DNA from: a virus
Taxonomy: Duplodnaviria > Heunggongvirae > Uroviricota > Caudoviricetes
Length of the DNA stretch: 18,003 nucleotides
Strand: one strand, 5' to 3'
Virus record (IMG/VR): IMGVR_UViG_3300021279_000020
Program-made: the position numbers and the translations under genes
Notes under the pieces: generated by a model
The model's input: the letters and a program-made list of their open reading frames with translations, nothing else
Told to the model about the DNA's origin: nothing
Database searches by the model: none
Part shown: positions 1,129 to 17,893 of the stretch, piece after piece
Position numbering within the stretch: the stretch's first letter is position 1
Layout of the letters: each line of letters opens with the position of its first letter

Positions 1129-1133
1129 GCCCA

Positions 1134-1160
1134 TAAAAAAAGCCCCTCCGGAGAGGGGCT
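1134..1160 (-). terminator. Rho-independent terminator (8-bp stem AGCCCCTC/GAGGGGCT, 4-nt loop, then U7 on the minus strand)
   Basis: Plus strand shows AAAAAAA then AGCCCCTCCGGAGAGGGGCT; on the minus strand this is hairpin followed by TTTTTTT. It lies downstream of the TerB / small-peptide pair. Confidence 0.6.
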
Positions 1161-1403
1161 GACGCTGCGTATCTGTATCATCATGCGCATGGTGCCGGGT
1201 GCCTCCCGGTGAGTTCAGTATCAGCACCTGAACCCGCACAGAAAGGATAAGGGATGTAACCAAACACCTGTCGCTGATATGCCCCTCCGCACAGGGGGAT
1301 TCACCATGCAGGATTTTTTTAACAAATTCTCAGTCGGGCAGACAACTGTCAACCGTCTGAATTGTGAGACATTTAAAATTTTCGGGGCATGACTGATACC
1401 CGG

Positions 1404-2165: not shown

Positions 2166-2242
2166 TGGCGCGTTGTACTGGATTCGAACCAATGACCGAT
2201 TGCTTAGAAGGCAATTGCTCTGTCCGGCTGAGCTAACAACGC
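2166..2242 (-). tRNA. tRNA-Arg (anticodon UCU), 77 nt
   Basis: Reverse complement folds as a canonical cloverleaf: acceptor GCGTTGT/ACAACGC, D-arm GCTC..GAGC, anticodon stem ATTGC/GCAAT with loop CTTCTAA, T-loop GGTTCGAATCC, discriminator G and encoded CCA. Confidence 0.9.
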
Positions 2243-2255
2243 AGTGTACCGATAA

Positions 2256-2332
2256 TGGACCGCCATCGAGGACTCGACCCCCGCGCAACCAGCTTCGAAG
2301 GCTGGCGCTCTGTCCCGATGAGCTAATGGCGG
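2256..2332 (-). tRNA. tRNA-Arg-like (anticodon UCG), 77 nt, non-canonical features (C1:G72 acceptor pair, T-loop GUCGAGU)
   Basis: Reverse complement: acceptor CCGCCAT/ATGGCGG, D-arm GCTC..GAGC, anticodon stem CCAGC/GCTGG with loop CTTCGAA, T-stem CGGGG/CCTCG, encoded CCA. Confidence 0.7.
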
Positions 2333-2341
2333 TATGTGATA

Positions 2342-2417
2342 TGGTGGCCCTTGCTGGATTTGAACCAGCGACCTGGCGATTATGAGTCGCTCGCTCTCAC
2401 CACTGAGCTAAAGGGCC
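2342..2417 (-). tRNA. tRNA with CAU anticodon, most similar in my recollection to tRNA-Ile2 (ileX-like, lysidine-modified), 76 nt
   Basis: Reverse complement GGCCCTTTAGCTCAGTGGTGAGAGCGAGCGACTCATAATCGCCAGGTCGCTGGTTCAAATCCAGCAAGGGCCACCA gives a complete cloverleaf with anticodon loop CTCATAA. Confidence 0.88.
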
Positions 2418-6513: not shown

Positions 6514-6669
6514 TTACTTCTCAGATTCGTAGTCTACGAAGACAGCAACCTCCGTCTGGCCGGTTCGGATTCGTACCTCGCAGAGGTCTTTCCTCGTTAC
6601 CAGTGCCGTCACTATGACGGTTAAACAGATGACGATCAGGGCGATTAACATCGCCTTTTGCTGCTTCAT
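6514..6669 (-). CDS. hok: Hok/Gef-family type I toxin, 51 aa (MKQQKAMLIALIVICLTVIVTALVTRKDLCEVRIRTGQTEVAVFVDYESEK)
   Basis: Near-identity by recollection to E. coli HokD/RelF. Single TM helix followed by a conserved C-terminal region. Confidence 0.88.
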   Translation of the reverse strand: MKQQKAMLIALIVICLTVIVTALVTRKDLCEVRIRTGQTEVAVFVDYESEK

Positions 6670-6726
6670 AGTCTGCTTCTCCTTGACCTTTCGGTCCGTA
6701 AGAGGCAATCTATATGTGACGAGCAT
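6514..6726 (-). CDS. mok: Mok-like in-frame N-terminal extension reading frame over hok (MLVTYRLPLTDRKVKEKQT then Hok)
   Basis: Track ORF 6514..6726. The extension matches my recollection of the MokC N-terminus (MLNTCRVPLTDRKVKEKRA). Confidence 0.6.
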   Translation of the reverse strand: MLVTYRLPLTDRKVKEKQTMKQQKAMLIALIVICLTVIVTALVTRKDLCEVRIRTGQTEVAVFVDYESEK

Positions 6727-6780
6727 ATAGGGGCCTCACTTCGATTTATAGTCGGGTGGGGCTTTTATCTATCTGCCGTT
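6715..6780 (+). ncRNA. sok: Possible Sok-like antisense RNA opposite the mok start; coordinates approximate
   Basis: Inferred from hok/mok architecture. A plus-strand -35-like TTGACC sits at 6683-6688. I could not place the -10 or the terminator with confidence. Confidence 0.3.
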
Positions 6781-6914
6781 GGTGTTCATGCCCGAGGCAG
6801 ATAGCCTCAAGCACCCGCAGCAATTCTACAAAAACAAACTATTATTTTCTATGTCCTTTCACTTGTCTCATTTCTGACTATACTGATCGCTCACACAACA
6901 CAAAAGGTATAAAA

Positions 6915-7130: not shown

Positions 7131-7214
7131 TCATCCCCAGCGGCAAATCGAATACACCACCAGCGCCACCGCCATTGCAATTCCTACCGCCACGAATGCC
7201 TCAGGCCAGGTCAT
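7131..7214 (-). CDS. Candidate hydrophobic micro-protein, 27 aa (MTWPEAFVAVGIAMAVALVVYSICRWG), ATG overlapping the stop of the upstream 160-aa gene (ATGA)
   Basis: Hand translation. SD GGAGG lies about 10 nt upstream. Single predicted TM helix. Below the track size cutoff. Confidence 0.4.
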   Translation of the reverse strand: MTWPEAFVAVGIAMAVALVVYSICRWG

Positions 7215-7693
7215 CGTAAAATATCCTCCGCGCTTATCAGTCCGTTTCGCTTCAGGTAGTCCATCGCTTTATCCGGTAGTTTGCTTGATTTATTAACGCT
7301 TTTTAAGGAATGAGATAACCGCTTCACCCACATTGTTAATTCACTTACCTGATCGCCTGATGCTGGATTATTGTCGCTTTTTCCAGGCAATATGTGCTCT
7401 CGACTGGATTTCCAGAATATCCACGCCAAATCCACATTTGGATCCCGGTAATTCATCCCTTCGTTAGCACGAAGCAACAATGTTGCATGGTTTTTATCAT
7501 CCGCATAGAACCTGATAAGCGCTTCGAACTGTTCGCGACCGTCATCAGGAATTACCTGAAAGTTGCCAGCCTGACGCATAGCTATTTCCATGATCTCAAC
7601 CATATCCCCTGGTAGAATTTTACAATGCTGACCAATATGCCTCTGCTGCCTGGCATATTCGAGGATGTGCTCCAGCTTGATACGATTAATCAT
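7211..7693 (-). CDS. Hypothetical protein, 160 aa
   Basis: Track ORF. ATG 7693 overlaps the stop of the 122-aa gene (ATGA). Confidence 0.75.
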   Translation of the reverse strand: MINRIKLEHILEYARQQRHIGQHCKILPGDMVEIMEIAMRQAGNFQVIPDDGREQFEALIRFYADDKNHATLLLRANEGMNYRDPNVDLAWIFWKSSREHILPGKSDNNPASGDQVSELTMWVKRLSHSLKSVNKSSKLPDKAMDYLKRNGLISAEDILR

Positions 7694-8058
7694 GATTTAT
7701 CTCCATTAAGCATGGCATCCCGGCAGGCATTCCAGCCTTCATCAAATCCGACAATGCCATTATTTAAAGATGGACGAGCATCCGGCACCACCGGTACTGG
7801 TTGGGCTACATATAACGGCTGAACATACCAGCCCTTTGATAACCAACTATCAGCAACGTTTTTACTCCTGGTTATTGCTGGAATACCCAGGCCATTGTCT
7901 GAATGCAGCCATGCCACCGGAACCGCTTCCAGCGATGCCAGTGCAATTTTGAATAGCTCGCCCTCTACCCTGGCCATCTCTGAATTAGGGTAACATTTTG
8001 CAACCGCTATTTTTAATTTGGCTTCTTTGATTAATTGCTCTTTGGTTAATTCAGTCAT
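7690..8058 (-). CDS. Hypothetical protein, 122 aa
   Basis: Track ORF with ATG 8058, preceded by a hairpin (ACCGCC..GGCGGT) and a distal AAGGAG. Confidence 0.75.
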   Translation of the reverse strand: MTELTKEQLIKEAKLKIAVAKCYPNSEMARVEGELFKIALASLEAVPVAWLHSDNGLGIPAITRSKNVADSWLSKGWYVQPLYVAQPVPVVPDARPSLNNGIVGFDEGWNACRDAMLNGDKS

Positions 8059-8153
8059 TTTTCATTACCGCCCTTTCAGGCGGTCTCCTTATGTTCTGAG
8101 GGTGCAGGAATCCCTCCGGTTAAGGATTAAATTTTTAACAGTGCTGAATTTAA

Positions 8154-8510
8154 TTATTCAGTTCTGGATTTTGACGCCCTGCGTATCCGCGCTTTCGCGT
8201 TACGCTCAATCTGAATTAACTTTTCTATATTTTTTCGCCTTTCCTGTTCCTCCTGGCGCAATAGCTTTACATCATCTGCCAGTCTGGTTTCTCTTTTCGC
8301 CACAGAGAGCATCCAGTCAAACGGCTCCACAACTGAACCGCAGATTTTACAGCGGACCTGACGCTCTTTTTCGTCAACCCGGACAGAGGCGTGATGGCAG
8401 TATGGTCTTTCCGATGGCTCATAAAGAAAATTAACCTGATTACGTGGGTCATCCTCTTTTACCGGAAATAAAACAATATTACTTAACTCATCTTCTGGTT
8501 TTATTTCCAC
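8154..8510 (-). CDS. Hypothetical protein with putative zinc-ribbon motif (C-HH...C-x2-C), 118 aa, GTG start
   Basis: Track ORF 8154..8552. SD AGGAGA lies 6 nt upstream of GTG 8510. Overlaps the 3' end of the upstream gene by 23 nt. Confidence 0.65.
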   Translation of the reverse strand: MEIKPEDELSNIVLFPVKEDDPRNQVNFLYEPSERPYCHHASVRVDEKERQVRCKICGSVVEPFDWMLSVAKRETRLADDVKLLRQEEQERRKNIEKLIQIERNAKARIRRASKSRTE

Positions 8511-8814
8511 ATCGCTCTCCTTTGATGCGAATGCCAGCAACACGTAGTGCATGTTCTAAGTCAGCCAGATAAAGCCAGCTGCCATTTTCCTTAGGTATCA
8601 TAATATGGCGCTCATCAGCATTTATCGGGTGTCCATAGCGAAGTTCATAACCAACCGGTAACTGGACTTCCCTTGCCTCCAGTTCTGCAATGCGCTTGTC
8701 TTTGGCCTCCAGTTCATCAAGGACCTTTTTTATGGCTGGCGAATGTGTCATATAACTCGCAGCCGGACCAGCAAGCATTATCCTGAGCTGTACTTTCGCT
8801 TTTTCTATTTTCAT
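8488..8814 (-). CDS. Hypothetical protein, 108 aa
   Basis: Track ORF. Its ATG immediately follows the TAG stop of the upstream gene. Confidence 0.7.
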   Translation of the reverse strand: MKIEKAKVQLRIMLAGPAASYMTHSPAIKKVLDELEAKDKRIAELEAREVQLPVGYELRYGHPINADERHIMIPKENGSWLYLADLEHALRVAGIRIKGERCGNKTRR

Positions 8815-9126
8815 CTACGCCATTACCTTGTTTCGCAACCAGACACAAACCGGGCCATCTTCAGTATCATGAATGGAGCCAATAAACCAGCCTTCTCCCT
8901 CTGGTCGTTCCGGTTCCCAGGCGGAAATACCGGAGTCATCTGCATCTGAATTAAAATCATCTTCATCCATACTGCAAATAGTCCACTGAAGATTATTTAC
9001 CTTCATCCAGGCGTCAAATTCCTCGGTGGAAATATATTCACGACCTGCGCAAAACTTTTCATACTCCGGATGTGTCCAGCAGCCATATTCATCACGTTCT
9101 ACCTGCATTTCTTTAATTTCGCTCAC
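8815..9126 (-). CDS. Hypothetical acidic protein, 103 aa (GTG start with AGGAGG SD; alternative ATG at 9153)
   Basis: Track ORF 8815..9153. A strong AGGAGG lies 6 nt upstream of the in-frame GTG at 9126. Confidence 0.7.
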   Translation of the reverse strand: MSEIKEMQVERDEYGCWTHPEYEKFCAGREYISTEEFDAWMKVNNLQWTICSMDEDDFNSDADDSGISAWEPERPEGEGWFIGSIHDTEDGPVCVWLRNKVMA

Positions 9127-9418
9127 TTGTTGCCTCCTGGAAAATAACCGCATGTCCCAGTTTCTCCGCCAGTGCCAGTTCTGCCTTAGCGCCTGCCGAC
9201 CGCTGCCAGCCTTTCAGCATGTAAATCGCATCCACGCAGCGTATCATCGCCATGCAGATATCCATGTACTGCGGCTGTGTCAGCCCGTCCGGAAGTACTG
9301 CCGGGTTTAAAACGGTATGCCCTTCCCGTTTCAGTGCTTCTTCCGCCCTGTGAAATGCCTCGCAGTTGAAATTTTCATATCCCGTCATTGGACCGGCGAT
9401 ATAAATGCTCACCCTCAC
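9113..9418 (-). CDS. DUF4406-like / nucleoside 2-deoxyribosyltransferase-fold protein, 101 aa, GTG start overlapping the upstream stop (GTGA)
   Basis: Track ORF. The N-terminal VSIYIAGPMTG motif resembles deoxyribosyltransferase-like folds. SD AGGAGGG lies 7 nt upstream. Confidence 0.65.
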   Translation of the reverse strand: MRVSIYIAGPMTGYENFNCEAFHRAEEALKREGHTVLNPAVLPDGLTQPQYMDICMAMIRCVDAIYMLKGWQRSAGAKAELALAEKLGHAVIFQEATSERN

Positions 9419-9669
9419 GCCTGAACCCTCCTGTCGAAATAAACGTAGTTATTCACTATGCGCAGCGGCATGCCTAATTTTCTGGCAATTTCCCTTCTTT
9501 GCATGCCTCTCTGATGCAGTTGCCGCGCCAGCTCAATATCACGCTGAGAATATTTTGCCGACGGGTGAAAATCACCACGTAACATCATGCTGATGCCCAG
9601 CTCCCGTGCCTTCGTTCTCACTGCCGCTTCAGTTCGTCCGATAAGTGCACCAACGCTTTTTACCTTCAT
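9415..9669 (-). CDS. Small HTH DNA-binding protein, 84 aa (sigma-70 region-4-like or NinH-like)
   Basis: Track ORF with ATG 9669. Helix-turn-helix-like segment QRREIARKLGMPLRIVNNYV. Confidence 0.7.
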   Translation of the reverse strand: MKVKSVGALIGRTEAAVRTKARELGISMMLRGDFHPSAKYSQRDIELARQLHQRGMQRREIARKLGMPLRIVNNYVYFDRRVQA

Positions 9670-9728
9670 TGTTCCCGCGCACTACCGGAGTATCAGAATT
9701 TCAGCCCGGCACCACGTCTTCCACCCAC

Positions 9729-10445
9729 TCACCGTTGCTGTTCTCTGGTGGCGGTAATATCCCGGAGAATATCCCGGCACTTGTTCAGCTCCCGCAGCGC
9801 GGCGCAGACTCGCTCCCACTTCTGAACCTGACCTTTTGCCCGGCGCAGCTCGCGGTTAGCCACATGCAGCGATGGTAGAATCAGGTCATCTGCTTTCGTT
9901 TCGGTGACCGATGGCTGTAACTTCACAATGTCTTCCACGATTTCTGTTTTCATTTCTTCCTGTGTCGTCGTTTCCTGGACTGGTAACGCAACACCTGCTG
10001 GCTGAGGAAAGGCTTTACCATCGGTTTCCGCTACGGATGCAGCTTCCGGCTCTGCCGGTAAATCAGCGCCCGGTATGCAGTAACGAAATTTACCGCCCTG
10101 ATTTACGCGAATCAGACGCCCTTTGCTGATTGCCATGGCCAGCGATGAATTCGCCCGGCGGGAGGTAATCCCGAACATAAGTGCCAGCTCATCCGCCGTT
10201 TGTGGGCCATGTTGTTCAATCGCCTCAGTCAGCATTTGCGCTGTCACTTTCGGTACCGGTGACACTGGTTCACTTTCACCTGCCTGAGTCAGCCACCACA
10301 TCGACCCCTTGTTATCCGCTTCACCACGGCGCTTCAGTTTCCACAGTTCGTTGACCGCATCTTCACGGCTGATTCCAAGGCGGGCCGCCACTACCTGTGA
10401 AGAGGCTCTTTTCAGTGCTTTCAGTGCGTCAAATACGGTTTCCAT
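9729..10445 (-). CDS. Hypothetical protein with two winged-helix-like segments, 238 aa (start ATG 10445 with GGAGG SD; the track's TTG at 10463 is less likely)
   Basis: Track ORF 9729..10463. GGAGG lies 8 nt upstream of ATG 10445. Confidence 0.75.
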
Positions 10446-10478
10446 TAAAATTTCCTCCGACAAAATCGTTTCCCAGAT

Positions 10479-11141
10479 TCAAATAAAACCAGCAGCCTTC
10501 CGGCGTTCGTATTCCTGTTTCAGCCGTTCAATTGGCGTTGGCCCTTGCGGGTGTTTCGCCCCTTCCAGTTGTCGTCGCACTGGCGGAACACTCATCCCGT
10601 TACCAACATGCTTTGCCCATTTCGTCAGTTGCCGTTCCGCAAGTCGTTTTAACTCACCCTGCGTCATCTGGCGCTCAATCCCTCTGGTACGCATTTCGAG
10701 GCAGATGTGGTACAGCACAGGCTGTGGCCACGGGTATTTATCACTCCCGTCGTATCGCCAGGATTCATTGCGCCAGCGCCGGTACTCTTCCATCACGGCA
10801 TCCACCGTAAGACCAAATGGATTTGCCCCACTCTCCGAAATCAGTGCAACAAACTCAGCCAGGTCCGGGGGCCACGTTTCACCCGCCCGGCAGCGGTCCA
10901 TGCACTGACGGCAGACCAGACGGATTTGCTGTTCAGTCATCGCACCAATCTGGGCAATCCAGAGCTTCGAAGGTGCGGCCCCGTTCTTCTGAGTCCAGCG
11001 GTTCGAATACACCTCCCCCATAAGCTCCCACAGCTTCCAGGCCGTTTCCGTTGCTGATAAATCCGTTGTCACGTTCCCACTGTTCGCGTGCTGCCCGGAT
11101 TTCCTGAACTGCCCGTGATGCCGTGCCACCTGATGCTGCAT
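10479..11141 (-). CDS. P: Replication protein P-like (helicase loader), 220 aa
   Basis: Track ORF with ATG 11141 and SD AAGGGGG. Blocks such as PPDLAEFVALI and YDGSDKYPWPQPVLYHIC resemble lambda P (PSPGQFVAWC, YPDAESYPWKSNAHYWLV) from memory. Confidence 0.75.
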   Translation of the reverse strand: MQHQVARHHGQFRKSGQHANSGNVTTDLSATETAWKLWELMGEVYSNRWTQKNGAAPSKLWIAQIGAMTEQQIRLVCRQCMDRCRAGETWPPDLAEFVALISESGANPFGLTVDAVMEEYRRWRNESWRYDGSDKYPWPQPVLYHICLEMRTRGIERQMTQGELKRLAERQLTKWAKHVGNGMSVPPVRRQLEGAKHPQGPTPIERLKQEYERRKAAGFI

Positions 11142-11970
11142 GGCTTACCCCCTTGCTGACTGGTTTTACCTGTGCCCAGACGTGCTGCACGTGACGGGCA
11201 AATTTCTGCTCCCACTGAACCTGCGTGAAAACCTTCCCCTCTGCCATCCAGTAATCCCGGAATGCGGCAAGCTCAGCAGGTGTAAATTCCGGCTCAGGCA
11301 GAGCCATACCCCACACTGCTGCCCGTTGTCGAAAATCCGGCGACGGCTGCCAGACAGTAGTCATCGAAAATTTCCCGATGGGTTCGCTCAGGCCATCCAA
11401 GAATACAGGGGGCGCTGCCTGTAACGACAAAACTTCCTGCTCACTGGTCGGAGCACTCTCGCGTGCGTTATGTGTGGGGTTTAGATCTTTGGGTTCCTTT
11501 GGGTTCCGTGATCCGTTTTTGGGTGTCTTTGATGGAAAATTTGGGTGTCTTTGGTTATTTTCCATGCAGCTAAGAGTTCCGTTTTTGGGTTTGTTTTGTG
11601 CTGAAACATAACCATTTTCGGTACTGTTTTTATTAACAGTACCAATTTTACCCACCTTTAAAGACTCCCGTTTTTGGGTGTATTCAGGCTCGGCAACACT
11701 TTCTTCTACACCGATAAGTCGGTACACCACAATTTGCTTTGTTCTGCCTTTTCTCTCACCAGTATCAACAATTAACCCAATCTCCATCAGGTGTCGTAAA
11801 CTGTCCTGCACAGTCTTTTTGTTCAGTTCCGTTACTTCTGCCAGTGCAGATATAGACGGGTATGCGCACAAATCGGCACCGCACATATCAGCAAGCCAGG
11901 TCAATACTGACTTACTGGATGAACTGCCGGTTTTCACCTTTTTAGCCCATCGTAGTGCATCGATACTCAT
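10933..11970 (-). CDS. O: Replication initiator O-like protein, 345 aa, containing the ori iterons; its 3' end overlaps the P start by about 209 nt in another frame
   Basis: Track ORF 10933..12045 (TTG); preferred start is ATG 11970. Iteron array and AT-rich tract lie inside the gene, as for lambda O/ori. Confidence 0.75.
   Translation of the reverse strand: MSIDALRWAKKVKTGSSSSKSVLTWLADMCGADLCAYPSISALAEVTELNKKTVQDSLRHLMEIGLIVDTGERKGRTKQIVVYRLIGVEESVAEPEYTQKRESLKVGKIGTVNKNSTENGYVSAQNKPKNGTLSCMENNQRHPNFPSKTPKNGSRNPKEPKDLNPTHNARESAPTSEQEVLSLQAAPPVFLDGLSEPIGKFSMTTVWQPSPDFRQRAAVWGMALPEPEFTPAELAAFRDYWMAEGKVFTQVQWEQKFARHVQHVWAQVKPVSKGVSHAASGGTASRAVQEIRAAREQWERDNGFISNGNGLEAVGAYGGGVFEPLDSEERGRTFEALDCPDWCDD
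11486..11682. repeat. ori-like iteron array: repeated (T)CCGTTTTTGGGTGT / TTTGGGT motifs flanking an AT-rich tract
   Basis: Direct repeats containing TTTGGGT at about 11488, 11498, 11517, 11540, 11584 and 11673, with an AT-rich segment at 11600-11655. Confidence 0.6.
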
Positions 11971-12493
11971 ACGAACCCCAGACAGATATTTGTTTATCTG
12001 CAAAGTAATGTTGGTATTGCTGACGATACGCACGCTTGAAAGCAATGGCTTTTTCTATAAGCTCGTCAGTCTCACGTTCCACAACAACTGGATCCGCAAA
12101 AAGCAGCCCGGACTCCACCACATCGCCATACTCTTTGTTTAACCCGGCGATCATGTACGTAATGCTTTTTCCGTCAGTAATTTCACAATACAACCTGAAA
12201 TCACTTACCCGGATAGCCTCCATAATTGCCGGAATCAGCGCCGTGAATTTTTCACGCTTATCCCTGGTGTCGATAGCCTTCCAGCGTTCGAATATCTTCA
12301 CTCGATTAACGCCCAGCGCCCGTTGATCAACCTCGCCATCATTAAACGTGACGCGTTGAACATCGATGTTCGGGCGTTCTTTCAGAGCCCAGAATGCTTC
12401 CGTGATTAATATCGTCGCCTGCTCCTGTGTCATTCCTGGTCGGCATACCCAGGCATCCAGAGCCTCACAAACCTGTTCAGGGGTGATTTTCAT
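11942..12493 (-). CDS. CII-position protein, 183 aa (possibly YdaT-like)
   Basis: Track ORF with ATG 12493. Located between the Cro-like gene and O. Family assignment is tentative. Confidence 0.65.
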   Translation of the reverse strand: MKITPEQVCEALDAWVCRPGMTQEQATILITEAFWALKERPNIDVQRVTFNDGEVDQRALGVNRVKIFERWKAIDTRDKREKFTALIPAIMEAIRVSDFRLYCEITDGKSITYMIAGLNKEYGDVVESGLLFADPVVVERETDELIEKAIAFKRAYRQQYQHYFADKQISVWGSYEYRCTTMG

Positions 12494-12743
12494 TGTTCAC
12501 CGCCAGTGATTCATTCGCTGTAGGCTTAATCCTGCCAATAGTCAAAACCGCATCAGCAGAAAATAATCCGTTTGATGCCAGAGCAATTTTTTCAGCGTAA
12601 TTTGTTTCGCCTGTATATTCTGTGCGCGGTAATTTTCCATTATTCATCCATTTGTAGATTGCTCTTTGGCTGACACCGCAAACATCGGCTACAACAGAAA
12701 CGCGAACTGCTTTGATTACATCTGCAAGTGTTGCATGGCTCAT
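12477..12743 (-). CDS. Cro-like HTH regulator (YdaS/Cro family), 88 aa
   Basis: Internal ATG 12743 of track ORF 12477..12815, with SD GAGGG 6 nt upstream. HTH segment VADVCGVSQRAIYKWMNNGKLP. Divergent from the CI-like gene. Confidence 0.75.
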   Translation of the reverse strand: MSHATLADVIKAVRVSVVADVCGVSQRAIYKWMNNGKLPRTEYTGETNYAEKIALASNGLFSADAVLTIGRIKPTANESLAVNNENHP

Positions 12744-12822
12744 ATCACCCTCACAATGTGAACTTTGAGTACACAATATAACAGAACTGACAGTACATTC
12801 AATAGCAAATATCATTGAACTT
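12744..12822. promoter_or_regulatory. Divergent cro/cI intergenic region (oR-like) carrying an AGTACATT operator-like motif
   Basis: 79-bp AT-rich intergenic region between divergent regulators; AGTACATT at 12792-12799 and AGTACA at about 12768. Confidence 0.4.
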
Positions 12823-13242
12823 ATGGTTCATGAAGATGAAGCGCGTAAAGAGTTCGCCAGCAGGCTTGCGCTAGCCTGTGAAAATGCTGGCTTTGAACAA
12901 CACGGAAGGCAGGCAGAAATTGCCCGTCGAATGAAGCTAACACCCAAAGCGGTTAGTAAATGGTTTAATGGAGAGACAATTCCCCGTCGAGAGAAACTGA
13001 AAGAATTGGCAGCACTTATCGGAACAACACCAACTTACCTTCTGGGGGAGGACACTGAAGAAAGCGGAAGCCTGCGTTTCTATCAGGAGTTAAGTCCGAG
13101 GCAAAAAATCATCATTGAACTTCTTGATGAACTCCCTGACAGTGAAACTGATGAACTTTTAAAAACTCTTGAGGAGAAAAAACAGAAGTACAACGCAATT
13201 TATGAAGAATTAGCGCGAAAGAAAAAACAAAAAGCCTCATGA
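12823..13242 (+). CDS. CI-like repressor, HTH_XRE N-terminal domain with coiled-coil C-terminus, 139 aa; no S24/LexA-type peptidase domain
   Basis: Track ORF. HTH segment GRQAEIARRMKLTPKAVSKWFNGE. The C-terminus is Lys/Glu-rich and helical, and the protein is too short for a peptidase domain. Confidence 0.8.
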   Translation: MVHEDEARKEFASRLALACENAGFEQHGRQAEIARRMKLTPKAVSKWFNGETIPRREKLKELAALIGTTPTYLLGEDTEESGSLRFYQELSPRQKIIIELLDELPDSETDELLKTLEEKKQKYNAIYEELARKKKQKAS

Positions 13243-13299
13243 ATCTGCATAAATCCGGTAGCTTCCCTCCGGGTTTATGCTCCTCTCATCCCCTCCTGA

Positions 13300-13365
13300 T
13301 ATTTTATCCCTCACAAAAATGTACTAAAAGTACTTTACATTAGTGAACAATAAGTACATTATATC
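13300..13365. promoter_or_regulatory. oL/pL-like operator region: inverted 8-mers AATGTACT (13318-13325) and AGTACATT (13353-13360)
   Basis: The same 8-mer is present in the cro/cI intergenic region, and further GTAC-centred repeats lie between the two copies here. Confidence 0.35.
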
Positions 13366-13537
13366 AACCAACCACCCCACCCACAGAACGCCAGGCAATA
13401 CTTCGAGTTACCCGGCAGTGGTCAGGAGTTAAGTAGCCAGCCCGAGGCGTATGAACATGACGGCGGGAACACTTTGTATAACAGCGCAGCAGGTTTTTAG
13501 TTCCGCTACCCCGGCGTTAAGGGGAAATGAGGTCAAC

Positions 13538-13690
13538 ATGGATACGCTCAATCTTGGCAACAACGAATCTCTGGTATGCGGTGTGTTCCCTAACCAGGAC
13601 GGCACGTTTACCGCGATGACGTATACCAAAAGTAAAAAGTTTAAAACCGAAGCTGGCGCGCGTCGCTGGTTAGCCAGAAACACTAACTGA
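13538..13690 (+). CDS. Small early protein, 50 aa (possibly DUF1391/YdfA-like); alternative start ATG 13451
   Basis: Track ORF 13451..13690. SD GAGG lies 7 nt upstream of ATG 13538. Confidence 0.5.
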   Translation: MDTLNLGNNESLVCGVFPNQDGTFTAMTYTKSKKFKTEAGARRWLARNTN

Positions 13691-14180
13691 TTAGCACCAG
13701 TAAAAACAGGTTGCCACTGGTTAATTTACCCTGAAAAGTCAGGGCATAACACGAAAGCGCACGGCGAAGTTCGTATATCTGTACGGCGTCGTTAAATTTT
13801 CTTCGACCGTGCACTTCCGGTTGTGGCAATCCGCGAAATGGCGCGGCGGTAAGTATGGCTGGGGTTTCCTCCATTGCTCCAGAAAATGCACCGGGTTGTC
13901 AGGTTGACCATACGCTTAAGTGACAGCCCCGCCACAATACCCATGTGTAGTCTTTGGTGGCATCAGTTCTACTCCGTGACTGCTCTGCCACCCTTTTTAA
14001 AGTGAATTTTGTGATGCGGTGAATGCGGCTATGCGCACGCGGAACAGTTAAAACCGTAAAGTGGTCTTTTACGGGGCGTAACGGGCATACTTCTGTATTC
14101 CGGCGTTAATTGTTAACTGGTTAACGTCACCTGGAGGCACCAGGCACCACATCACAAAATTCATTGTTGAGGACGCGATA

Positions 14181-14369
14181 ATGGAAACGTTATTACCAAA
14201 CGTTAATACGTCTGAAGGGTGTTTTGATATTGGTGTTCTGCTCAGTAACCGGGAGTTTACTGAAGATGCCATTAAGATGAGAAAATATGAGCCTTATCTT
14301 CTCAATGATAATTCCATACTCTCCAGAATTGCCCTTCTTAAACTTGGTATTTTCGGGGGGCAGCAGTGA
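14181..14369 (+). CDS. Hypothetical small protein, 62 aa
   Basis: Track ORF with SD GAGGA 8 nt upstream of ATG 14181. Confidence 0.55.
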   Translation: METLLPNVNTSEGCFDIGVLLSNREFTEDAIKMRKYEPYLLNDNSILSRIALLKLGIFGGQQ

Positions 14370-14554
14370 CTTCTGCATTTGCACTGGTAATGACTGTTTT
14401 TCTTATAACGGGTGAGCCACAGAATGTGATTACCGGAATTTATGCCAGTAAAGAATCATGCCTCCGTACAAGAGACGAGCAAAAAATTTCTGGCGAATGC
14501 CTCCCGTTAAAAAAAGTATCGCTGTACCTGAATAACGAAATACCGGCTGGATAA
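14366..14554 (+). CDS. Hypothetical small protein, 62 aa, with hydrophobic N-terminus (signal-peptide or TM-like); GTG start overlapping the upstream stop (GTGA)
   Basis: Track ORF. GGGGGG lies 5 nt upstream of GTG 14366. N-terminus TSAFALVMTVFLITG. Confidence 0.5.
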   Translation: MTSAFALVMTVFLITGEPQNVITGIYASKESCLRTRDEQKISGECLPLKKVSLYLNNEIPAG

Positions 14555-14646
14555 TCCACCAGCCATATTAACGCCATACCCGTTGATTAAGCATGCCAGC
14601 AATGGCAGGGGTTCGTACAACCTTAAAATAGTTATGAGGTTTATCC

Positions 14647-16311
14647 ATGAGCACTGATAAAGAAGAATTTTCGCTATATTGCGAAGCAAAAAATGACAAG
14701 GTCAGAAAACGCCTTGGGATTAAAGGGGGTTTTTACTGGACTACAGCAAAAAAATTATCTGTTGCCATCTCACGGTGCGTTGTTGCAATGGACGAGGCAG
14801 GCTACGACGCTGATGATTTCAAAAAACCTGTCCGCGTCCATTTCCCCGTTGTGAATGACCTTCCACCGGAAGGCGTGTTTGATACCGAATTCTGCAACCG
14901 CTATGAAAAAGGCGGGGAAGATGGCATCACAATGATATTTATAGCGCCTTCCCCCTCAGTTCAGGACAAACCAGCCAGCACTGACAATACCAACGTCAAT
15001 GGCGAAGACATGGCTGAGATTGAGGATAATATGCTCCTGCCGATTTCCGGTCAGGAACTGCCCATTCGCTGGCTTGCGCAACATGGCAGCGAAAAACCGG
15101 TAACGCACGTTTCACGGGAAGAACTTCAGGCATTACATATCGCACGAGCTGAAGAACTACCGGCTGTTACTGGCCTGGCTATTTCCCACAACACAAAGCT
15201 GCTCGACCCGCTGGAGATTCGCGACCTTCACAAACTGGTACGCGACACAGACAAAGTTTTCCCTAATCCCGTTAATTCCAGTCTGGGGTTAATGACTGCT
15301 TTTTTCGAAGCATACCTGAACGCTGACTATACCGATCGAGGTCTGCTGACAAAAGAGTGGATGAAAGGAAATCGTGTTTCTCGCATCACCCGCACGGCTT
15401 CCGGTGCAAATGCCGGTGGCGGAAATAAAACGGATCGTAATCCTGATTTAGTACACACCCTCGATACTCTGGATGTGGAGATTGCAGCAGCCACACTTCC
15501 GATGGATTTTAATATTTATGAAATTCCCGTGAGCGTTTATCGTCGCGCAAAAGAAATCGTCCTGAAAAAAGAAAGTCCGTTCAGGGAATGGTCCCCAGCA
15601 CTTCGCGCAACCCCTGGTATCCTGGACTATTCCCGCGCAGCTATTTTTGCACTTATCCGGAGCGCCCACCCTGAGTTTTATCACTACCCGGGACGTCTTC
15701 AGGGGTATATCAATGCCAACCTGACAGAGACCGATCACGAGAATCCCACAGCTGAAACGCTCATGGCTGCCCGGCATACACCGGAAAAAGATATCCTGGA
15801 AGAAATTAACCGCGAGCTGGCTGCTGAGTGCAAAACAGAAGAAGAAAAAAATGATGAAGAAAACCCGCAACCATCTGGCGCAATGGCAGATGAACAGGCA
15901 ACGGCTGAAACAATGGCAGCGGATACAGTTGAACATCATCAGGACCCGCAGCCGCTGGATGACAAGTCACAGGTAAAAGTTACCGCTGAAGAAGTAAATA
16001 AAATTATGGAGGCAGCAGACATCAGTCGACCAGATGCAGACAAATTGCTTGCCGCTTCCCGTGGTGAGTTCGTTGAAGGCATCAGTGACCCTGCCGATCC
16101 GAAGTGGGTTAAGGGGATCCAGAGTCGCGACGCCGAGGACCAGAACCAGCAAGAAACAGAACAGAACGGTCAGAAAGCGGAACAAAACAGCCCAAATGCG
16201 TTACAAAACGAGCCAGAAACGAAACAACCTGAACCAGTCGTGCAACATACCAGGAGACATTCAACGAAGAAAGCCAGGATGAAGCCCGGGAGAAAGATCC
16301 AGAGGAAATGA
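14647..16311 (+). CDS. RecE (exodeoxyribonuclease VIII) N-terminal-region-like protein, 554 aa, with a long acidic low-complexity C-terminal tail; no recognisable nuclease domain
   Basis: Track ORF with SD GAGGT 8 nt upstream. The segment NTNVNGEDM..EIE.NMLLPISGQELPIRWLAQHGSEKPVTHVSR...NADYTDRGLLTKEWMKGNRVS matches my recollection of the non-catalytic N-terminal part of RecE. Unverified. Confidence 0.65.
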   Translation: MSTDKEEFSLYCEAKNDKVRKRLGIKGGFYWTTAKKLSVAISRCVVAMDEAGYDADDFKKPVRVHFPVVNDLPPEGVFDTEFCNRYEKGGEDGITMIFIAPSPSVQDKPASTDNTNVNGEDMAEIEDNMLLPISGQELPIRWLAQHGSEKPVTHVSREELQALHIARAEELPAVTGLAISHNTKLLDPLEIRDLHKLVRDTDKVFPNPVNSSLGLMTAFFEAYLNADYTDRGLLTKEWMKGNRVSRITRTASGANAGGGNKTDRNPDLVHTLDTLDVEIAAATLPMDFNIYEIPVSVYRRAKEIVLKKESPFREWSPALRATPGILDYSRAAIFALIRSAHPEFYHYPGRLQGYINANLTETDHENPTAETLMAARHTPEKDILEEINRELAAECKTEEEKNDEENPQPSGAMADEQATAETMAADTVEHHQDPQPLDDKSQVKVTAEEVNKIMEAADISRPDADKLLAASRGEFVEGISDPADPKWVKGIQSRDAEDQNQQETEQNGQKAEQNSPNALQNEPETKQPEPVVQHTRRHSTKKARMKPGRKIQRK

Positions 16312-17000
16312 AAAGTGCCGTATACCCGAACAAGGAGTGCACCGAAGGCGATCAACATGCCAATGGCAATAATGAAACAGGCGAGACAGCAAATCCCTTA
16401 ATTAAGGTGAGCGGTCATCATGAAAGCACATCCACCAGCAGGTTGTGGCACCATCTGATGATTGACCTTGAAACAATGGGCAAAAATCCTGATGCGCCAA
16501 TAGCCTCAATAGGCGCTGTATTTTTCGATCCACAAACCGGAGAGCAGGGGCCTGAATTCAGCAAAATAATTGATATGGGTACATGTGGCGGCACTGTAGA
16601 CATAAGCACCATCGAATGGTGGCTTCAACGCTCTGGCGAAGCCCGTGCCGCCATTTTAGCTGATCGAATACCGCTTGATGATGCGCTTTTACAATTACGG
16701 GAATTTATAGACGAAAACTCCGGTGAGTTTTTTGTTCAGGTCTGGGGAAATGGAGCCAACTTCGACAACGTGATTTTACGCCGTTCATATGAACGGCAGG
16801 AGATCCCCTGCCCGTGGCGTTACACCAATGATCGCGATGTAAGAACGATGGTCGCTCTGGGGTTGGTGATGGATTTCGATGCCCGCAACGTCACCACATT
16901 TGAGGGTGAACGCCATAATGCCCTGCACGATGCGCGTTACCAGGCAAAATACGTTTCAGTTATCTGGCAAAAACTGTTCCCGAATCAGGCTGATTTTTAA
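16308..17000 (+). CDS. DEDDh-family 3'-5' exonuclease (DnaQ-like), 230 aa; ATG overlapping the upstream stop (ATGA)
   Basis: Track ORF. Exo I motif MIDLETMG, Exo II WGNGANFD and Exo III HNALHDARY. Alternative start at Met51 (16458). Confidence 0.85.
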   Translation: MKSAVYPNKECTEGDQHANGNNETGETANPLIKVSGHHESTSTSRLWHHLMIDLETMGKNPDAPIASIGAVFFDPQTGEQGPEFSKIIDMGTCGGTVDISTIEWWLQRSGEARAAILADRIPLDDALLQLREFIDENSGEFFVQVWGNGANFDNVILRRSYERQEIPCPWRYTNDRDVRTMVALGLVMDFDARNVTTFEGERHNALHDARYQAKYVSVIWQKLFPNQADF

Positions 17001-17070
17001 TGTTCAACCGTCGCCGGTTGTGACTGGTATTCTGCAACCGGCGCTCATCTGATGTAAGAGATAAAAAGCG

Positions 17071-17322
17071 ATGAGTGAAGTAATCATGATTGTCTCTCCC
17101 GGCAAATGGGTATCTGAAGAGCAGTTAATTGCGCTGAAAGGAATAAAAAAAGGAACACTGAAAAAAGCCAGGGAAAAATCATTTATGGAAGGGAGAGAGT
17201 ATAAACATGTCGCTCATGACGGCATGCCGTGGGATAACAGCCCATGTTTTTACAATCTGGAAGAAATTGATCGCTGGATCGAGCGTCAGGCATCGGCAAG
17301 GCCAAGACGTCACCTTGCTTAA
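17071..17322 (+). CDS. Excisionase-like small DNA-binding protein (Xis/DUF1233-like), 83 aa
   Basis: Track ORF immediately upstream of the integrase; small basic protein with EGREY and W motifs. Alternative start ATG 17086. Confidence 0.55.
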   Translation: MSEVIMIVSPGKWVSEEQLIALKGIKKGTLKKAREKSFMEGREYKHVAHDGMPWDNSPCFYNLEEIDRWIERQASARPRRHLA

Positions 17323-17356
17323 TCCAAAACAACACTAATCAACGAGAGAAGCTGGC

Positions 17357-17893
17357 ATGAAATATCCGACAGGCGTAGAAAAACACGGGGGGACATTACG
17401 CATCTGGTTTGTTTATAAAGGCGTAAGAGTCAGGGAAAACCTCGGTGTCCCTGACACAGTAAAAAACAGACGCATCGCTGGTGAACTACGCGCTTCTGTT
17501 TGTTACGCAATAAAAACGGGGATTTTTGACTACGCAAAACAGTTCCCCTACTCCCACAATCTGGAAAAATTTGGGGAAGCCAGACAAAATTTGACGATAG
17601 GTGAACTGGCCGAAAAATTTCTGGCACTAAAAGAGGCCGAAGTTGCCAGAAGTTCACTCAATACATACCGTGCCGTCATCAAAAATATCCTGAGCATAAT
17701 CGGTGAAAAAAATCTTGCCTCATCGATTAATAAAGAAAAATTACTGGAGGTTCGTAAAGAGTTACTGACTGGATACCAGATCCCCAAAAGTAACTATATT
17801 GTTACACAACCCGGGAGATCGGCTGTTACCGTAAATAATTACATGACAAATCTTAACGCCGTGTTCCAGTTTGGTGGTAAGCGTACAGCCTGA
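17357..17893 (+). pseudogene. Tyrosine integrase N-terminal fragment (arm-binding plus core-binding regions only, 178 aa); the reading frame ends and the catalytic domain is missing
   Basis: Track ORF with N-terminus MKYPTGVEKHGGTLRIWFVYKG typical of integrase arm-binding domains. All three forward frames hit stops within about 30 nt after 17893. Confidence 0.65.

Follow-up and report, generated by a model that had tools for sequence, protein, structure and literature searches.

A probable dicBF-type early-left operon with a minority DicF allele in a lambdoid prophage of Escherichia coli

The non-coding stretch at the N position of the window (the whole 18,003-nt stretch of DNA that was analysed) was identified, with a probability of about 93%, as belonging to a lambdoid E. 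coli prophage, in which it forms the promoter-proximal portion of an early-left operon of dicBF type. This operon is an already known system, described for the E. coli K-12 prophage Qin; dicBF is a textbook operon and DicF was among the earliest bacterial sRNAs to be described. Because the stretch contains DicF, together with structured flanks that are predicted to be cut to release it, it was not read as a nut site or an antitermination RNA.

Operon layout and gene context

The presence of an Rfam DicF match together with ydfA and dicB indicated a ydfA-dicF-dicB early-left operon that does not contain ydfB and ydfC. The genes and signals of the operon are as follows.

12823-13242: gene of a DicA-like HTH repressor (139 aa), directly upstream of the pL-like promoter (Pfam scan)
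13334-13362, + strand: pL-like promoter, TTTACA-17 nt-CATTAT, within GTAC-type operators, corresponding to dicBp (promoter scan)
13365-13537, + strand: conserved 5′ leader from the predicted transcription start (homology among 72 loci)
13538-13690, + strand: ydfA, a DUF1391 small protein and first annotated gene of the operon (Pfam PF07151; PGAP, NZ_CP053731 homologue; K-12 ydfA)
13942-13998, + strand: DicF sRNA (minority allele) with its Rho-independent terminator (Rfam RF00039; fold −15.8 kcal/mol)
14181-14369, + strand: dicB, a 62-aa cell-division inhibitor and next gene of the operon (Pfam PF05358, E = 1.4e-36, full length)

By its sequence identity to the characterised system, the operon was shown to run from the DicA-like repressor gene to a putative pL-like promoter, followed by ydfA, a predicted structured leader, dicF with its own intrinsic terminator, a predicted structured spacer and dicB. 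The gene context given by Pfam and by annotated homologues was HTH repressor, DUF1391/ydfA, DicB, DUF1482/ydfD, exonuclease VIII, xis and int. The annotated order in K-12 Qin is dicA-ydfA-ydfB-ydfC-dicF-dicB-ydfD, and the order in the window was found to match it, with DicF coming after ydfA because ydfB and ydfC are absent. DicF was thus found in a dicBF-type setting, after a DicA-type repressor and ydfA(BC) and before dicB, in a lambdoid prophage. The nucleotide identity to K-12 was ~90% from 13726 to dicB, and about 50 nt of the promoter/operator were found to align closely with PL/OL of HK022. The module is kept in some 95-100 distinct prophage or phage sequences and matched 4,732 of the 5,426 complete E. 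coli genomes, and in phage Tritos DicF is annotated at the homologous position. A scan of genome contigs with the DicF core gave 10 loci, five of which came from non-enterobacterial MAGs and included at least two chance matches, and viral contigs were used instead.

The ORF at 13451-13690 was found to contain ydfA (Pfam DUF1391, E = 5.4e-29, residues 31-77), which in homologous records is annotated by PGAP as a 50-aa protein starting at 13538. The initial annotation had described a small non-basic ORF here; the small ORF is ydfA, but YdfA was found to be mildly basic, with 4 K and 3 R against 2 D and 2 E as read from the sequence. Its statement that no N gene is recognisable agreed with the result, as the first ORF is DUF1391 and the Pfam scan, which covered 20 ORFs of the window located in 7211-17893, gave no N-family protein. 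The homology of the 5′ leader in the 72 loci begins at ~13364-13367, irrespective of the upstream immunity region. The leader was found to contain a conserved SD and ATG (13457), from which most homologues have an open frame continuous with ydfA; a start at this ATG would give a product of 77 aa. Compensating indels occur, but the frame is kept in 42 of 46 sequences. In 13366-13540 no thermodynamic structure signal was found in comparison with shuffles (z = +0.1 and +1.6).

DicF, its terminator and the minority allele

The Rfam/Infernal check proposed earlier was run and placed DicF at 13942-13993(+) with 61.1 bits against a gathering score of 48, covering model positions 1-52 of 52; K-12 DicF scores 76.7 bits, above the copy in the window. 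The hairpin previously noticed as GGTGGCA...TGCCACC before CTTTTT is present and is DicF's own Rho-independent terminator, with its arms at 13956-13962 (GGTGGCA) and 13986-13992 (TGCCACC), then C and the TTTTT run (13994-13998). In the RNA it was found to form a bipartite stem-loop, GGUGGCA-U-CAGU...ACUG-CUC-UGCCACC, followed by C and UUUUU, and a C-G pair of the K-12 stem is replaced here by U-A, a compensatory change. One of the possibilities offered at the outset, another non-coding RNA, was therefore the right one, DicF being a discrete ncRNA that ends at this stem and U-run.

The DicF of the window is a minority allele, found in 206 of the 5,426 complete E. coli genomes (~4%). The first ~11 nt of DicF were found to differ from K-12, and a 14-nt deletion removes the AU-rich RNase E site of K-12; it is probable that the precise 5′ end differs from that of K-12 as well, together with those targets that are recognised through the 5′ seed. 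By RNAduplex computation, the DicF core was predicted to pair with ftsZ (−60 to +40) at −18.1 kcal/mol, against −16.9 kcal/mol for K-12 and with the same ftsZ segment, so that complementarity to the ftsZ ribosome-binding site is predicted for this allele. The predicted xylR pairing was −8.7 kcal/mol here against −20.3 kcal/mol in K-12. This drop is due to the replacement of the 5′ seed, the one of K-12 DicF (nt 5-17) being absent, and the loss is a difference between alleles that leaves the family membership unaffected. As the ~4% allele keeps the ftsZ-pairing core and swaps the xylR seed, prophage copies of DicF may not be functionally equivalent.

Predicted processing and the DicF-dicB spacer

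The region 13691-14185 as a whole was found to fold better than all 100 shuffles (z = −3.8), and the following RNA elements were recognised around DicF.

13729-13744, + strand: boxB-like hairpin CCCTGAAAAGTCAGGG, with a CCCUGA/UCAGGG stem and an AAAG tetraloop (fold −9.0 kcal/mol)
13745-13825, + strand: long irregular leader helix, ~22 bp with an apical hairpin (fold −30.7 kcal/mol, z = −3.7)
13893-13929, + strand: conserved precursor hairpin GGGUUGUCA...UGACAGCCC, just upstream of DicF (consensus fold; helix 7, 98.5% of cells paired)
13996-14172, + strand: structured DicF-dicB spacer, ~175 nt (sub-threshold Rfam STnc100 match; spacer model R1; inverted repeat)
14102-14128, + strand: GTTAAC hairpin with arms GGCGUUAAUU and GGUUAACGUC and the middle GUUAACU as loop (covariance-model alignments; helix 16, 99.5% of cells paired)
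14130-14144, + strand: hairpin CCUGG-AGGCA-CCAGG, common with STnc100 (CCGGG-AGGCA-CCCGG) through compensatory change

In the 95 homologues 97.7% of cells were found to be paired against 97.5% in shuffles, with 9 pairs showing double changes, a comparison that is largely uninformative because the sequences are very similar. The terminator aside, almost all predicted pairs are invariant among the homologues and the covariation support is thin. An attenuator-like pairing of the leader segment GGCGCGGCGG with the 3′ arm of the terminator, contained in the whole-region alifold consensus, was rejected, as the change that compensates the G-to-A of this allele lies within the terminator, not in the leader.

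As cited in a later paper, the K-12 dicF RNAs include species of 190 nt and 53 nt that depend on RNase III and RNase E, and the transcripts comprise a terminated one of 1,146 nt and a read-through one of 1,608 nt (PMC10448788). A 72-nt species of K-12 DicF with an RNase III 3′ end is likewise described in later papers (PMC5069750; PMC9438474). These processing coordinates were taken from papers citing Faubladier et al. 1990, and every processing step given here for the window is extrapolated from K-12. The published sites, the 5′ end of the 190-nt species and the 3′ end of the 72-nt species, were found to coincide with two long predicted helices. The first is the helix at 13745-13825 (helices 1-2, with 98-99.6% of cells paired in the 95 homologues), which is the predicted RNase III substrate from which the long DicF precursor obtains its 5′ end, with a cut expected at ~13814-13819, as placed from the cited 190-nt species through the K-12 alignment. 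The second lies in the spacer, where the RNase III site for the 3′ end of the 72-nt species, as cited in PMC5069750, would map to ~14012.

By homology to K-12 Qin, relief of the repressor would allow transcription from ~13369, which would stop at the DicF terminator (13956-13998) or read through into dicB. RNase III would cut the leader helix to give the long precursor, followed by trimming with RNase E to a mature DicF of ~50 nt. In the read-through RNA, RNase III would cut the 21-bp helix just past DicF (~14012), giving an alternative DicF 3′ end and separating DicF from the dicB mRNA. DicF with Hfq may then pair with the ftsZ ribosome-binding site, by which cell division would be blocked.

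The spacer was found to contain a 21-bp closing helix (14001-14021 / 14145-14165) that encloses several hairpins, and inside this helix a perfect inverted repeat of 14 nt, against a maximum of 11 in shuffles. The spacer matched Rfam STnc100 (RF02076) over model positions 1-206 with 32.3 bits (E = 1e-5), below the gathering threshold of 47, as does the K-12 spacer with 34.4 bits. In the reverse direction, model R1, made from 14 spacers only, was found to detect the true STnc100 copy at 1170-1322(-) with 49.3 bits (E ~4e-13), followed by the next unrelated match at 9.1 bits. The similarity of sequence and structure is thus significant, full-length and reciprocal, and three helices differ between the spacer and STnc100 by compensatory changes. 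The true STnc100 copy ends in GCCCCUCUCCGGAGGGGC and a U-run, whereas no 3′ terminator hairpin of its own, as of a stand-alone sRNA, was found for the spacer, and the 3′ part of the STnc100 model aligned poorly, onto the start of dicB. The putatively RNase III-processed spacer goes by structure with STnc100 and PasD and was taken as a paralogue of the STnc100 fold. It is conceivable, though rather doubtful, that the spacer is an unrecognised STnc100/PasD paralogue from which staggered RNase III cuts in the closing helix (~14012 and ~14156) release a regulatory RNA of ~140 nt, and that the minority DicF has targets different from those of K-12.

The GTTAAC words at 14112-14117 and 14120-14125 had been reported as tandem palindromes. 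The repeats are present, but instead of separate palindromes they were found to belong to one RNA hairpin within the spacer, as its two arms and its loop. This hairpin takes the position of the STnc100 hairpin GGGUUCAG...CUGAACUC, and as the sequence differs at the equivalent position, it is the structure and not the GTTAAC words that the spacer and STnc100 have in common.

Alternative readings and comparison with known systems

The hairpin CCCUGAAAAGUCAGGG could be a functional or degenerate nutL-type boxB, and the region an N-dependent antitermination site that has lost its N gene or had it replaced, a reading that is very unlikely. Its position within the first few hundred nt of a pL-type transcript fits, the hairpin is stable (z = −4.0), and CCCUGAAAA (9 nt) and the AGGGCAU that follows are common to it and to the boxB of lambda nutR. 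Nevertheless, CGCTCTTTA-like boxA sequences were found to have 0 matches with at most one mismatch on the + strand of 13243-14180, no N-like ORF was found among the 20 ORFs scanned, and the lambda boxB consensus GCCCTGAARAAGGGC is unmatched at this hairpin within 3 mismatches. The stem of 6 bp with an AAAG tetraloop differs from the lambda stem of ~5 bp with a GNRA-like pentaloop (GAARA). Three sequence types of the hairpin occur in the homologues: the commonest (K-12) type contains UCAGAC, by which the outer two pairs are lost with no compensation, and instead serves as the 3′ arm of a different hairpin, and the third type contains a different stem with a 13-nt loop, so that the hairpin is not conserved. 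Perfect 6-bp hairpins are expected by chance in 730 nt at 0.94 per shuffle, and 25% of shuffles contained at least two. The hairpin reported at 13729-13744 was thus confirmed in place, while its resemblance to lambda boxB and the suggestion of a degenerate nut site did not hold; it is a small, incidental stem-loop at the mosaic (recombination) junction where the homology to the K-12 dicF leader begins. It is extremely unlikely that the 490 nt hold one or more unannotated small protein genes, such as remnants or replacements of ydfB/ydfC. K-12 carries these two genes between ydfA and the leader, and several ORFs of 25-60 codons are present on both strands, but ydfB and ydfC are simply missing, the K-12 homology resuming past the ydfC stop codon. 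Indels of 14 nt and 4 nt cut the ORFs, and in agreement with the initial annotation, which saw no convincing ORF in ~490 nt, none in 13691-14180 on either strand keeps its length or frame across the 95 homologues. PGAP annotates nothing in these 490 nt, and the RNA elements account for the sequence. Somewhat less improbable, but still unlikely, is that the invariant GTTAA-N-GTTAAC-N-GTTAAC acts as DNA, either bound by a protein or contributing to a secondary dicB promoter. The repeats are identical in nearly all of the 95 homologues and, as related by Ragunathan et al. (PMC10448788), an earlier study proposed a promoter upstream of dicB; the same authors found no evidence of an internal promoter, the primer extension product being an RNase III end. 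The promoter scan was negative at the repeats, and the equivalent hairpin of STnc100 contains another sequence.

The leader might also be a put-like or another new cis-acting antiterminator RNA, by which RNA polymerase would pass the DicF terminator and continue into dicB, exo, xis and int, and hardly any probability was assigned to this. There is no N gene and yet an intrinsic terminator lies inside the early-left operon, the promoter/operator is homologous to PL of HK022, whose transcript starts with putL, and in homologues whose immunity regions differ the conserved leader begins precisely at the predicted transcription start; in our own hand alignment of 43 columns, ~65% identity to putR (stem II) was read. 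Two covariance models, R2 (putR) and R3 (putL), were made from HK022 and IMG/VR sequences with the cryo-EM pairing, separately because MAFFT misaligned putL with putR. The two models detect each other's element (45.8 and 41.3 bits) but gave at most 4.4 bits in 13363-14180, a result against the earlier suggestion of a protein-independent antitermination RNA, and put sequence and structure were not found there; the best match anywhere in the window was 11.3 bits (E = 0.24) at another place, and blastn gave nothing significant. The put RNAs of HK022 suppress terminators by acting in cis on RNA polymerase, at its β′ zinc-binding domain. HK022 put contains stem I with an A9-G35 platform and stem II with a G42-U65, G43-A64, C44-A63 motif (PMC9378689), and in a residue-by-residue comparison with that structure the sequence offered no place for the put helices or for the CAAU motif, which includes the essential A64. 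The leader 13366-13540 folds no better than shuffles, although folding energy alone is no test for put, as MFE folding of putL and putR fails to give the known structure. The sole alternative pairing that would compete with the terminator, between GGCGG of the leader and the 3′ arm of the terminator, is contradicted by the compensation inside the terminator, and in K-12 both terminated and read-through transcripts occur with no such element invoked (PMC10448788). The identification of DicF removes the false lead of a missing N or a new antiterminator.

In comparison with K-12 Qin, the dicBF-type operon of the window contained the repressor, the pL-like promoter, ydfA, leader, dicF, spacer, dicB and ydfD in the same order, with a leader, DicF core and spacer that are ~90% identical, the same terminator architecture, the ftsZ-complementary core and predicted helices at the published RNase III sites. 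It differed from Qin in having no ydfB and ydfC, in an immunity region with HK022-like operators and the 139-aa repressor, in a conserved 5′ leader of ~170 nt that is missing from K-12, and in that the prophage keeps replication, recombination, xis and int genes. An HK022-like promoter/operator, an operon without N and a conserved leader at the transcription start are in common with HK022 putL/putR, whereas a match to the put models, the put helices with their essential residues and a fold-stability signal of the leader are absent. In common with lambda nutL/nutR, the region is promoter-proximal in the early-left transcript of a lambdoid phage, and CCCUGAAAA occurs in it within a short, GC-rich hairpin; a boxA, a GNRA-like pentaloop, an N gene and a conserved hairpin structure were not found.

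In the lambda N leader, a long helix that precedes the first regulatory gene of the pL operon is cut by RNase III, by which the upstream RNA is split from the downstream cistron. By analogy, the long helix of the spacer just before the first regulatory gene may part upstream RNA from the downstream cistron in the same way; the sequence is different, and the upstream product here would be a trans-acting sRNA. With STnc100/PasD the spacer shares the closing GGUG/CACC helix, GGUGAAU followed by a hairpin, the GUUAAC-type hairpin and the AGGCA-loop hairpin, together with helices that differ by compensatory changes and reciprocal covariance-model matches. It differs in its score below the gathering threshold (32-34 against 47 bits), in a longer closing helix (21 bp) and in being an internal segment of a polycistronic mRNA without its own terminator, instead of a stand-alone sRNA gene. 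This likeness suggests a recurrent phage RNA module, present either as a processing cassette within an operon or as a free sRNA.

The dicBF operon at the N position

The stretch 13451-14180 (+), described in the initial annotation as an N-position region lacking an N gene, was indeed found to encode no N-like protein and to contain the dicBF operon instead. When the window was searched against all Rfam families, as had been proposed, a significant match to DicF (RF00039) was found at 13942-13993 (+), scoring 61.1 bits against a gathering score of 48 and covering the whole model. In the Rfam alignment, the GGTGGCA/TGCCACC hairpin with its U-run formed the terminator stem-loop of DicF, and among the options offered for this stretch "another non-coding RNA" was correct, the RNA being DicF. 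The quoted strings were found at their positions: CCCTGAAAAGTCAGGG at 13729-13744 (reading of 12800-14800), GGTGGCA at 13956-13962, TGCCACC at 13986-13992 followed by C and by TTTTT at 13994-13998, and two GTTAAC words at 14112-14117 and 14120-14125. The surrounding genes were as follows.

12823-13242: HTH_3 repressor gene (Pfam)
from 13451: ORF with DUF1391 (YdfA family), residues 31-77 matched (Pfam)
14181-14369: DicB, full length (Pfam, E = 1e-36)
14366-14554: DUF1482, YdfD-like (Pfam)
downstream of the DUF1482 gene: exonuclease VIII, Rv2179c-like exonuclease, excisionase, N-terminal part of an integrase (Pfam)
opposite strand: cro-like HTH protein, YdaT, O-like protein, lambda P-like protein

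The best E. coli homologue was found to carry the same annotation. Qin, the cryptic lambdoid prophage of E. coli K-12, contains the gene order dicA-ydfA-ydfB-ydfC-dicF-dicB-ydfD, and identity to it was about 90% from 13726 via dicF into dicB. The identified genes and the K-12 match therefore establish the "N position" as the dicBF operon. A 938-nt region was matched in 4,732 of the 5,426 complete E. coli genomes and in many temperate phages, in one of which, Tritos, DicF is annotated there. The RNA is thus the long-known DicF in its standard operon and is already known; the minor new points deserving a note are an STnc100-like spacer and a seed-swapped DicF allele.

Proposed antitermination signals

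The hairpin at 13729-13744 was predicted to consist of a 6-bp stem and an AAAG tetraloop (-9.0 kcal/mol), and a sequence of 730 nt would be expected to contain hairpins of such size by chance. Three versions were present among the homologues: the 6-bp type of the window, the K-12 type (UCAGAC), in which two pairs were lost with no compensation and whose sequence instead supplies the 3′ arm in a larger, ydfC-distal hairpin, and GCCUG-13 nt-CAGGC. The proposed resemblance to lambda boxB, as a degenerate nut site, was not borne out, given the tetraloop, the uncompensated pairs, the lack of any match to the lambda boxB consensus at the hairpin with up to three mismatches and the absence of boxA in the region; nut function, having failed its defining tests, was rejected as unsupported. 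Homology between differently composed upstream parts begins exactly at this hairpin, which therefore marks a mosaic junction. It may be an evolutionary relic.

The suggestion of a protein-independent antitermination RNA merited a real test, since the promoter/operator was clearly homologous to HK022 PL/OL, the put RNAs of HK022 serve instead of N and the leader runs from the predicted start. Covariance models of putR and putL were built from HK022 and IMG/VR relatives with base pairs from the cryo-EM structure (PMC9378689), and as a positive control the putR model detected putL and vice versa (41-46 bits). In 13363-14180, neither model gave a score above 4.4 bits, and the leader 13366-13540 was no more stable than shuffles. 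An alternative pairing of the leader with the 3′ arm of the terminator was contradicted by the location of the compensatory change. The put-like reading, failing its defining tests by low model scores, a leader no more stable than shuffled sequence and the place of the compensatory change, was therefore rejected at the sensitivity reached.

Two IMG/VR loci, L147 and L168, were found to be divergent putL-like sequences with compensatory changes in the 5′ duplex (AGACG/CGUCU vs UGUCG/CGACA); judged from their sequences, the changes are consistent with the cryo-EM helix A3-G7/C15-U19.

DicF and the DicF-dicB spacer

In K-12, transcription of the operon begins at dicBp, 5′ of ydfA, and either stops at the DicF terminator (1,146 nt) or reads through (1,608 nt); a 190-nt DicF precursor receives its 5′ end from RNase III, and the 53-nt mature DicF is produced by RNase E (PMC10448788). 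A 72-nt DicF with a later 3′ end results from RNase III cleavage of read-through RNA (PMC5069750, PMC9438474), and published work assigns pairing to the ribosome-binding site of ftsZ to the 3′ part of DicF and pairing to xylR to its 5′ end. By homology, the window copy would follow the same scheme of RNase III and then RNase E maturation. When the RNase III sites were transferred through the K-12 alignment, the 190-nt 5′ end was placed at about 13814-13819, in the 3′ arm of the 13745-13825 helix (irregular, about 22 bp, -30.7 kcal/mol, z = -3.7), and the 72-nt 3′ end at about 14012, in the middle of the 21-bp helix 14001-14021/14145-14165; both would thus lie in long predicted helices. The structured non-coding sequence first noted here was upheld, 13691-14185 being more stable than 100 of 100 shuffles (z = -3.8), and its K-12 equivalent likewise exceeded shuffles (z = -4.7).

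Compared with K-12, the window DicF was found to contain a 14-nt deletion across the RNase E site, differences in about the first 11 nt (13942-13955 being the DicF 5′ end) and a compensated change in the terminator. This is a minority allele, present at at least 99% identity in 206 of 5,426 complete E. coli genomes and unannotated there. In RNAduplex, the ftsZ pairing is predicted to be retained (-18.1 vs -16.9 kcal/mol in K-12) and the 13-bp xylR duplex is predicted to be lost (-8.7 vs -20.3 kcal/mol).

The spacer 13996-14172 (+) between DicF and dicB is a significant reciprocal covariance-model match to STnc100 (RF02076), below the Rfam cut-off. In a permissive Rfam search, 13991-14213 matched the full model with 32.3 bits (E = 1e-5), and the canonical K-12 spacer scored 34.4 bits, both below the cut-off of 47. 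The covariance model built solely from 14 DicF-dicB spacers in turn found the genuine STnc100 copy of the window (1129-1338 (-), 147 bits in Rfam) with 49.3 bits (E ~4e-13), the best unrelated match scoring 9.1 bits. In both RNAs a hairpin comes after GGUGAAU, another occupies the GTTAAC position (GGCGUUAAUU/GGUUAACGUC in the spacer, GGGUUCAG/CUGAACUC in STnc100) and a further one has an AGGCA loop (stem CCUGG/CCAGG and CCGGG/CCCGG, respectively); both also have a closing GGUG/CACC helix, and their helices differ by compensatory changes. Because STnc100 holds the equivalent hairpin at that position, the GTTAAC words, initially taken as tandem palindromes, are present as words and form a single RNA hairpin with the middle GTTAAC as its loop. 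STnc100 and PasD are connected in a 2026 preprint, which leaves DicF and dicB unmentioned; no paper connecting the spacer with STnc100 was found in an incomplete coverage of the literature. A 19-nt perfect hairpin (CGTAAAGTGGTCTTTTACG, 14055-14073) was found in a variable patch of the spacer; only some homologues have it, and it scores terminator-like on the minus strand.

Homologous segments, about 100 of them distinct, were gathered from IMG/VR and genomes, and a 95-sequence alignment was made, in which the non-coding module 13729-14180 was highly conserved except for four variable patches, and 97.7% of cells were standard pairs in the domain-wise consensus structure. The covariation check gave one clear compensatory event, C-G to U-A in the DicF terminator, with an adjacent U-G to C-G change; most other pairs never vary. 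Support for the structure thus comes chiefly from thermodynamics, from agreement with the mapped RNase III sites and from the STnc100 comparison, not from covariation within the set.

Flanking features, promoter and leader

Elsewhere, the window was found to contain the following.

6667-6816 (-): sok match (Rfam RF01794, 104.6 bits)
6514-6726 (-): 70-codon ORF overlapped by the sok match, putatively hok
2169-2417 (-): three tRNA genes, tRNA-Ile and two tRNA-Arg per the homologous record
17357-17893 (+): integrase ORF, 178 aa, arm-binding and SAM-like N-terminal domains

The tRNA genes were followed by TerB-family and DUF3927 genes (1389-2068) and then STnc100, which is the late-region layout of Stx-type phages; the homologous record, however, carries no toxin gene annotation. 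The integrase ORF, whose stop codon lies 110 nt short of the window end, may carry a frameshift or be truncated.

A 12-bp inverted repeat (GCATAAATCCGG/CCGGGTTTATGC, 13247-13280 (+)), directly 3′ of the repressor stop codon, is probably the repressor gene terminator or an insulator before the pL-like promoter. In 72 loci the conserved leader begins precisely where transcription is predicted to start, irrespective of the upstream immunity region, and 13365-13537 (+) was kept in about 50 distinct homologues of differing immunity regions. From a conserved ATG at 13457, preceded by a likewise conserved SD at 13444-13447, a reading frame continues into ydfA in 42 of 46 sequences, although compensating +1/-1 indels alter its middle residues, and forms a 20-codon upstream ORF in the remaining 4; judging from this frame, the YdfA encoded here may have 77 aa and not the annotated 50.

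The promoter/operator at 13300-13362 (+), AAAATGTACTA...GTACTTTACATTA.TGAAC...AAGTACATYATA, is a homologue of HK022 PL/OL, whereas the repressor is a 139-aa HTH protein of DicA-like type and the promoter is followed by no put RNA. Compared with K-12 Qin, the window was found to contain the leader 13365-13537, which is missing in Qin, a different immunity region and a dicBF operon without ydfB and ydfC.
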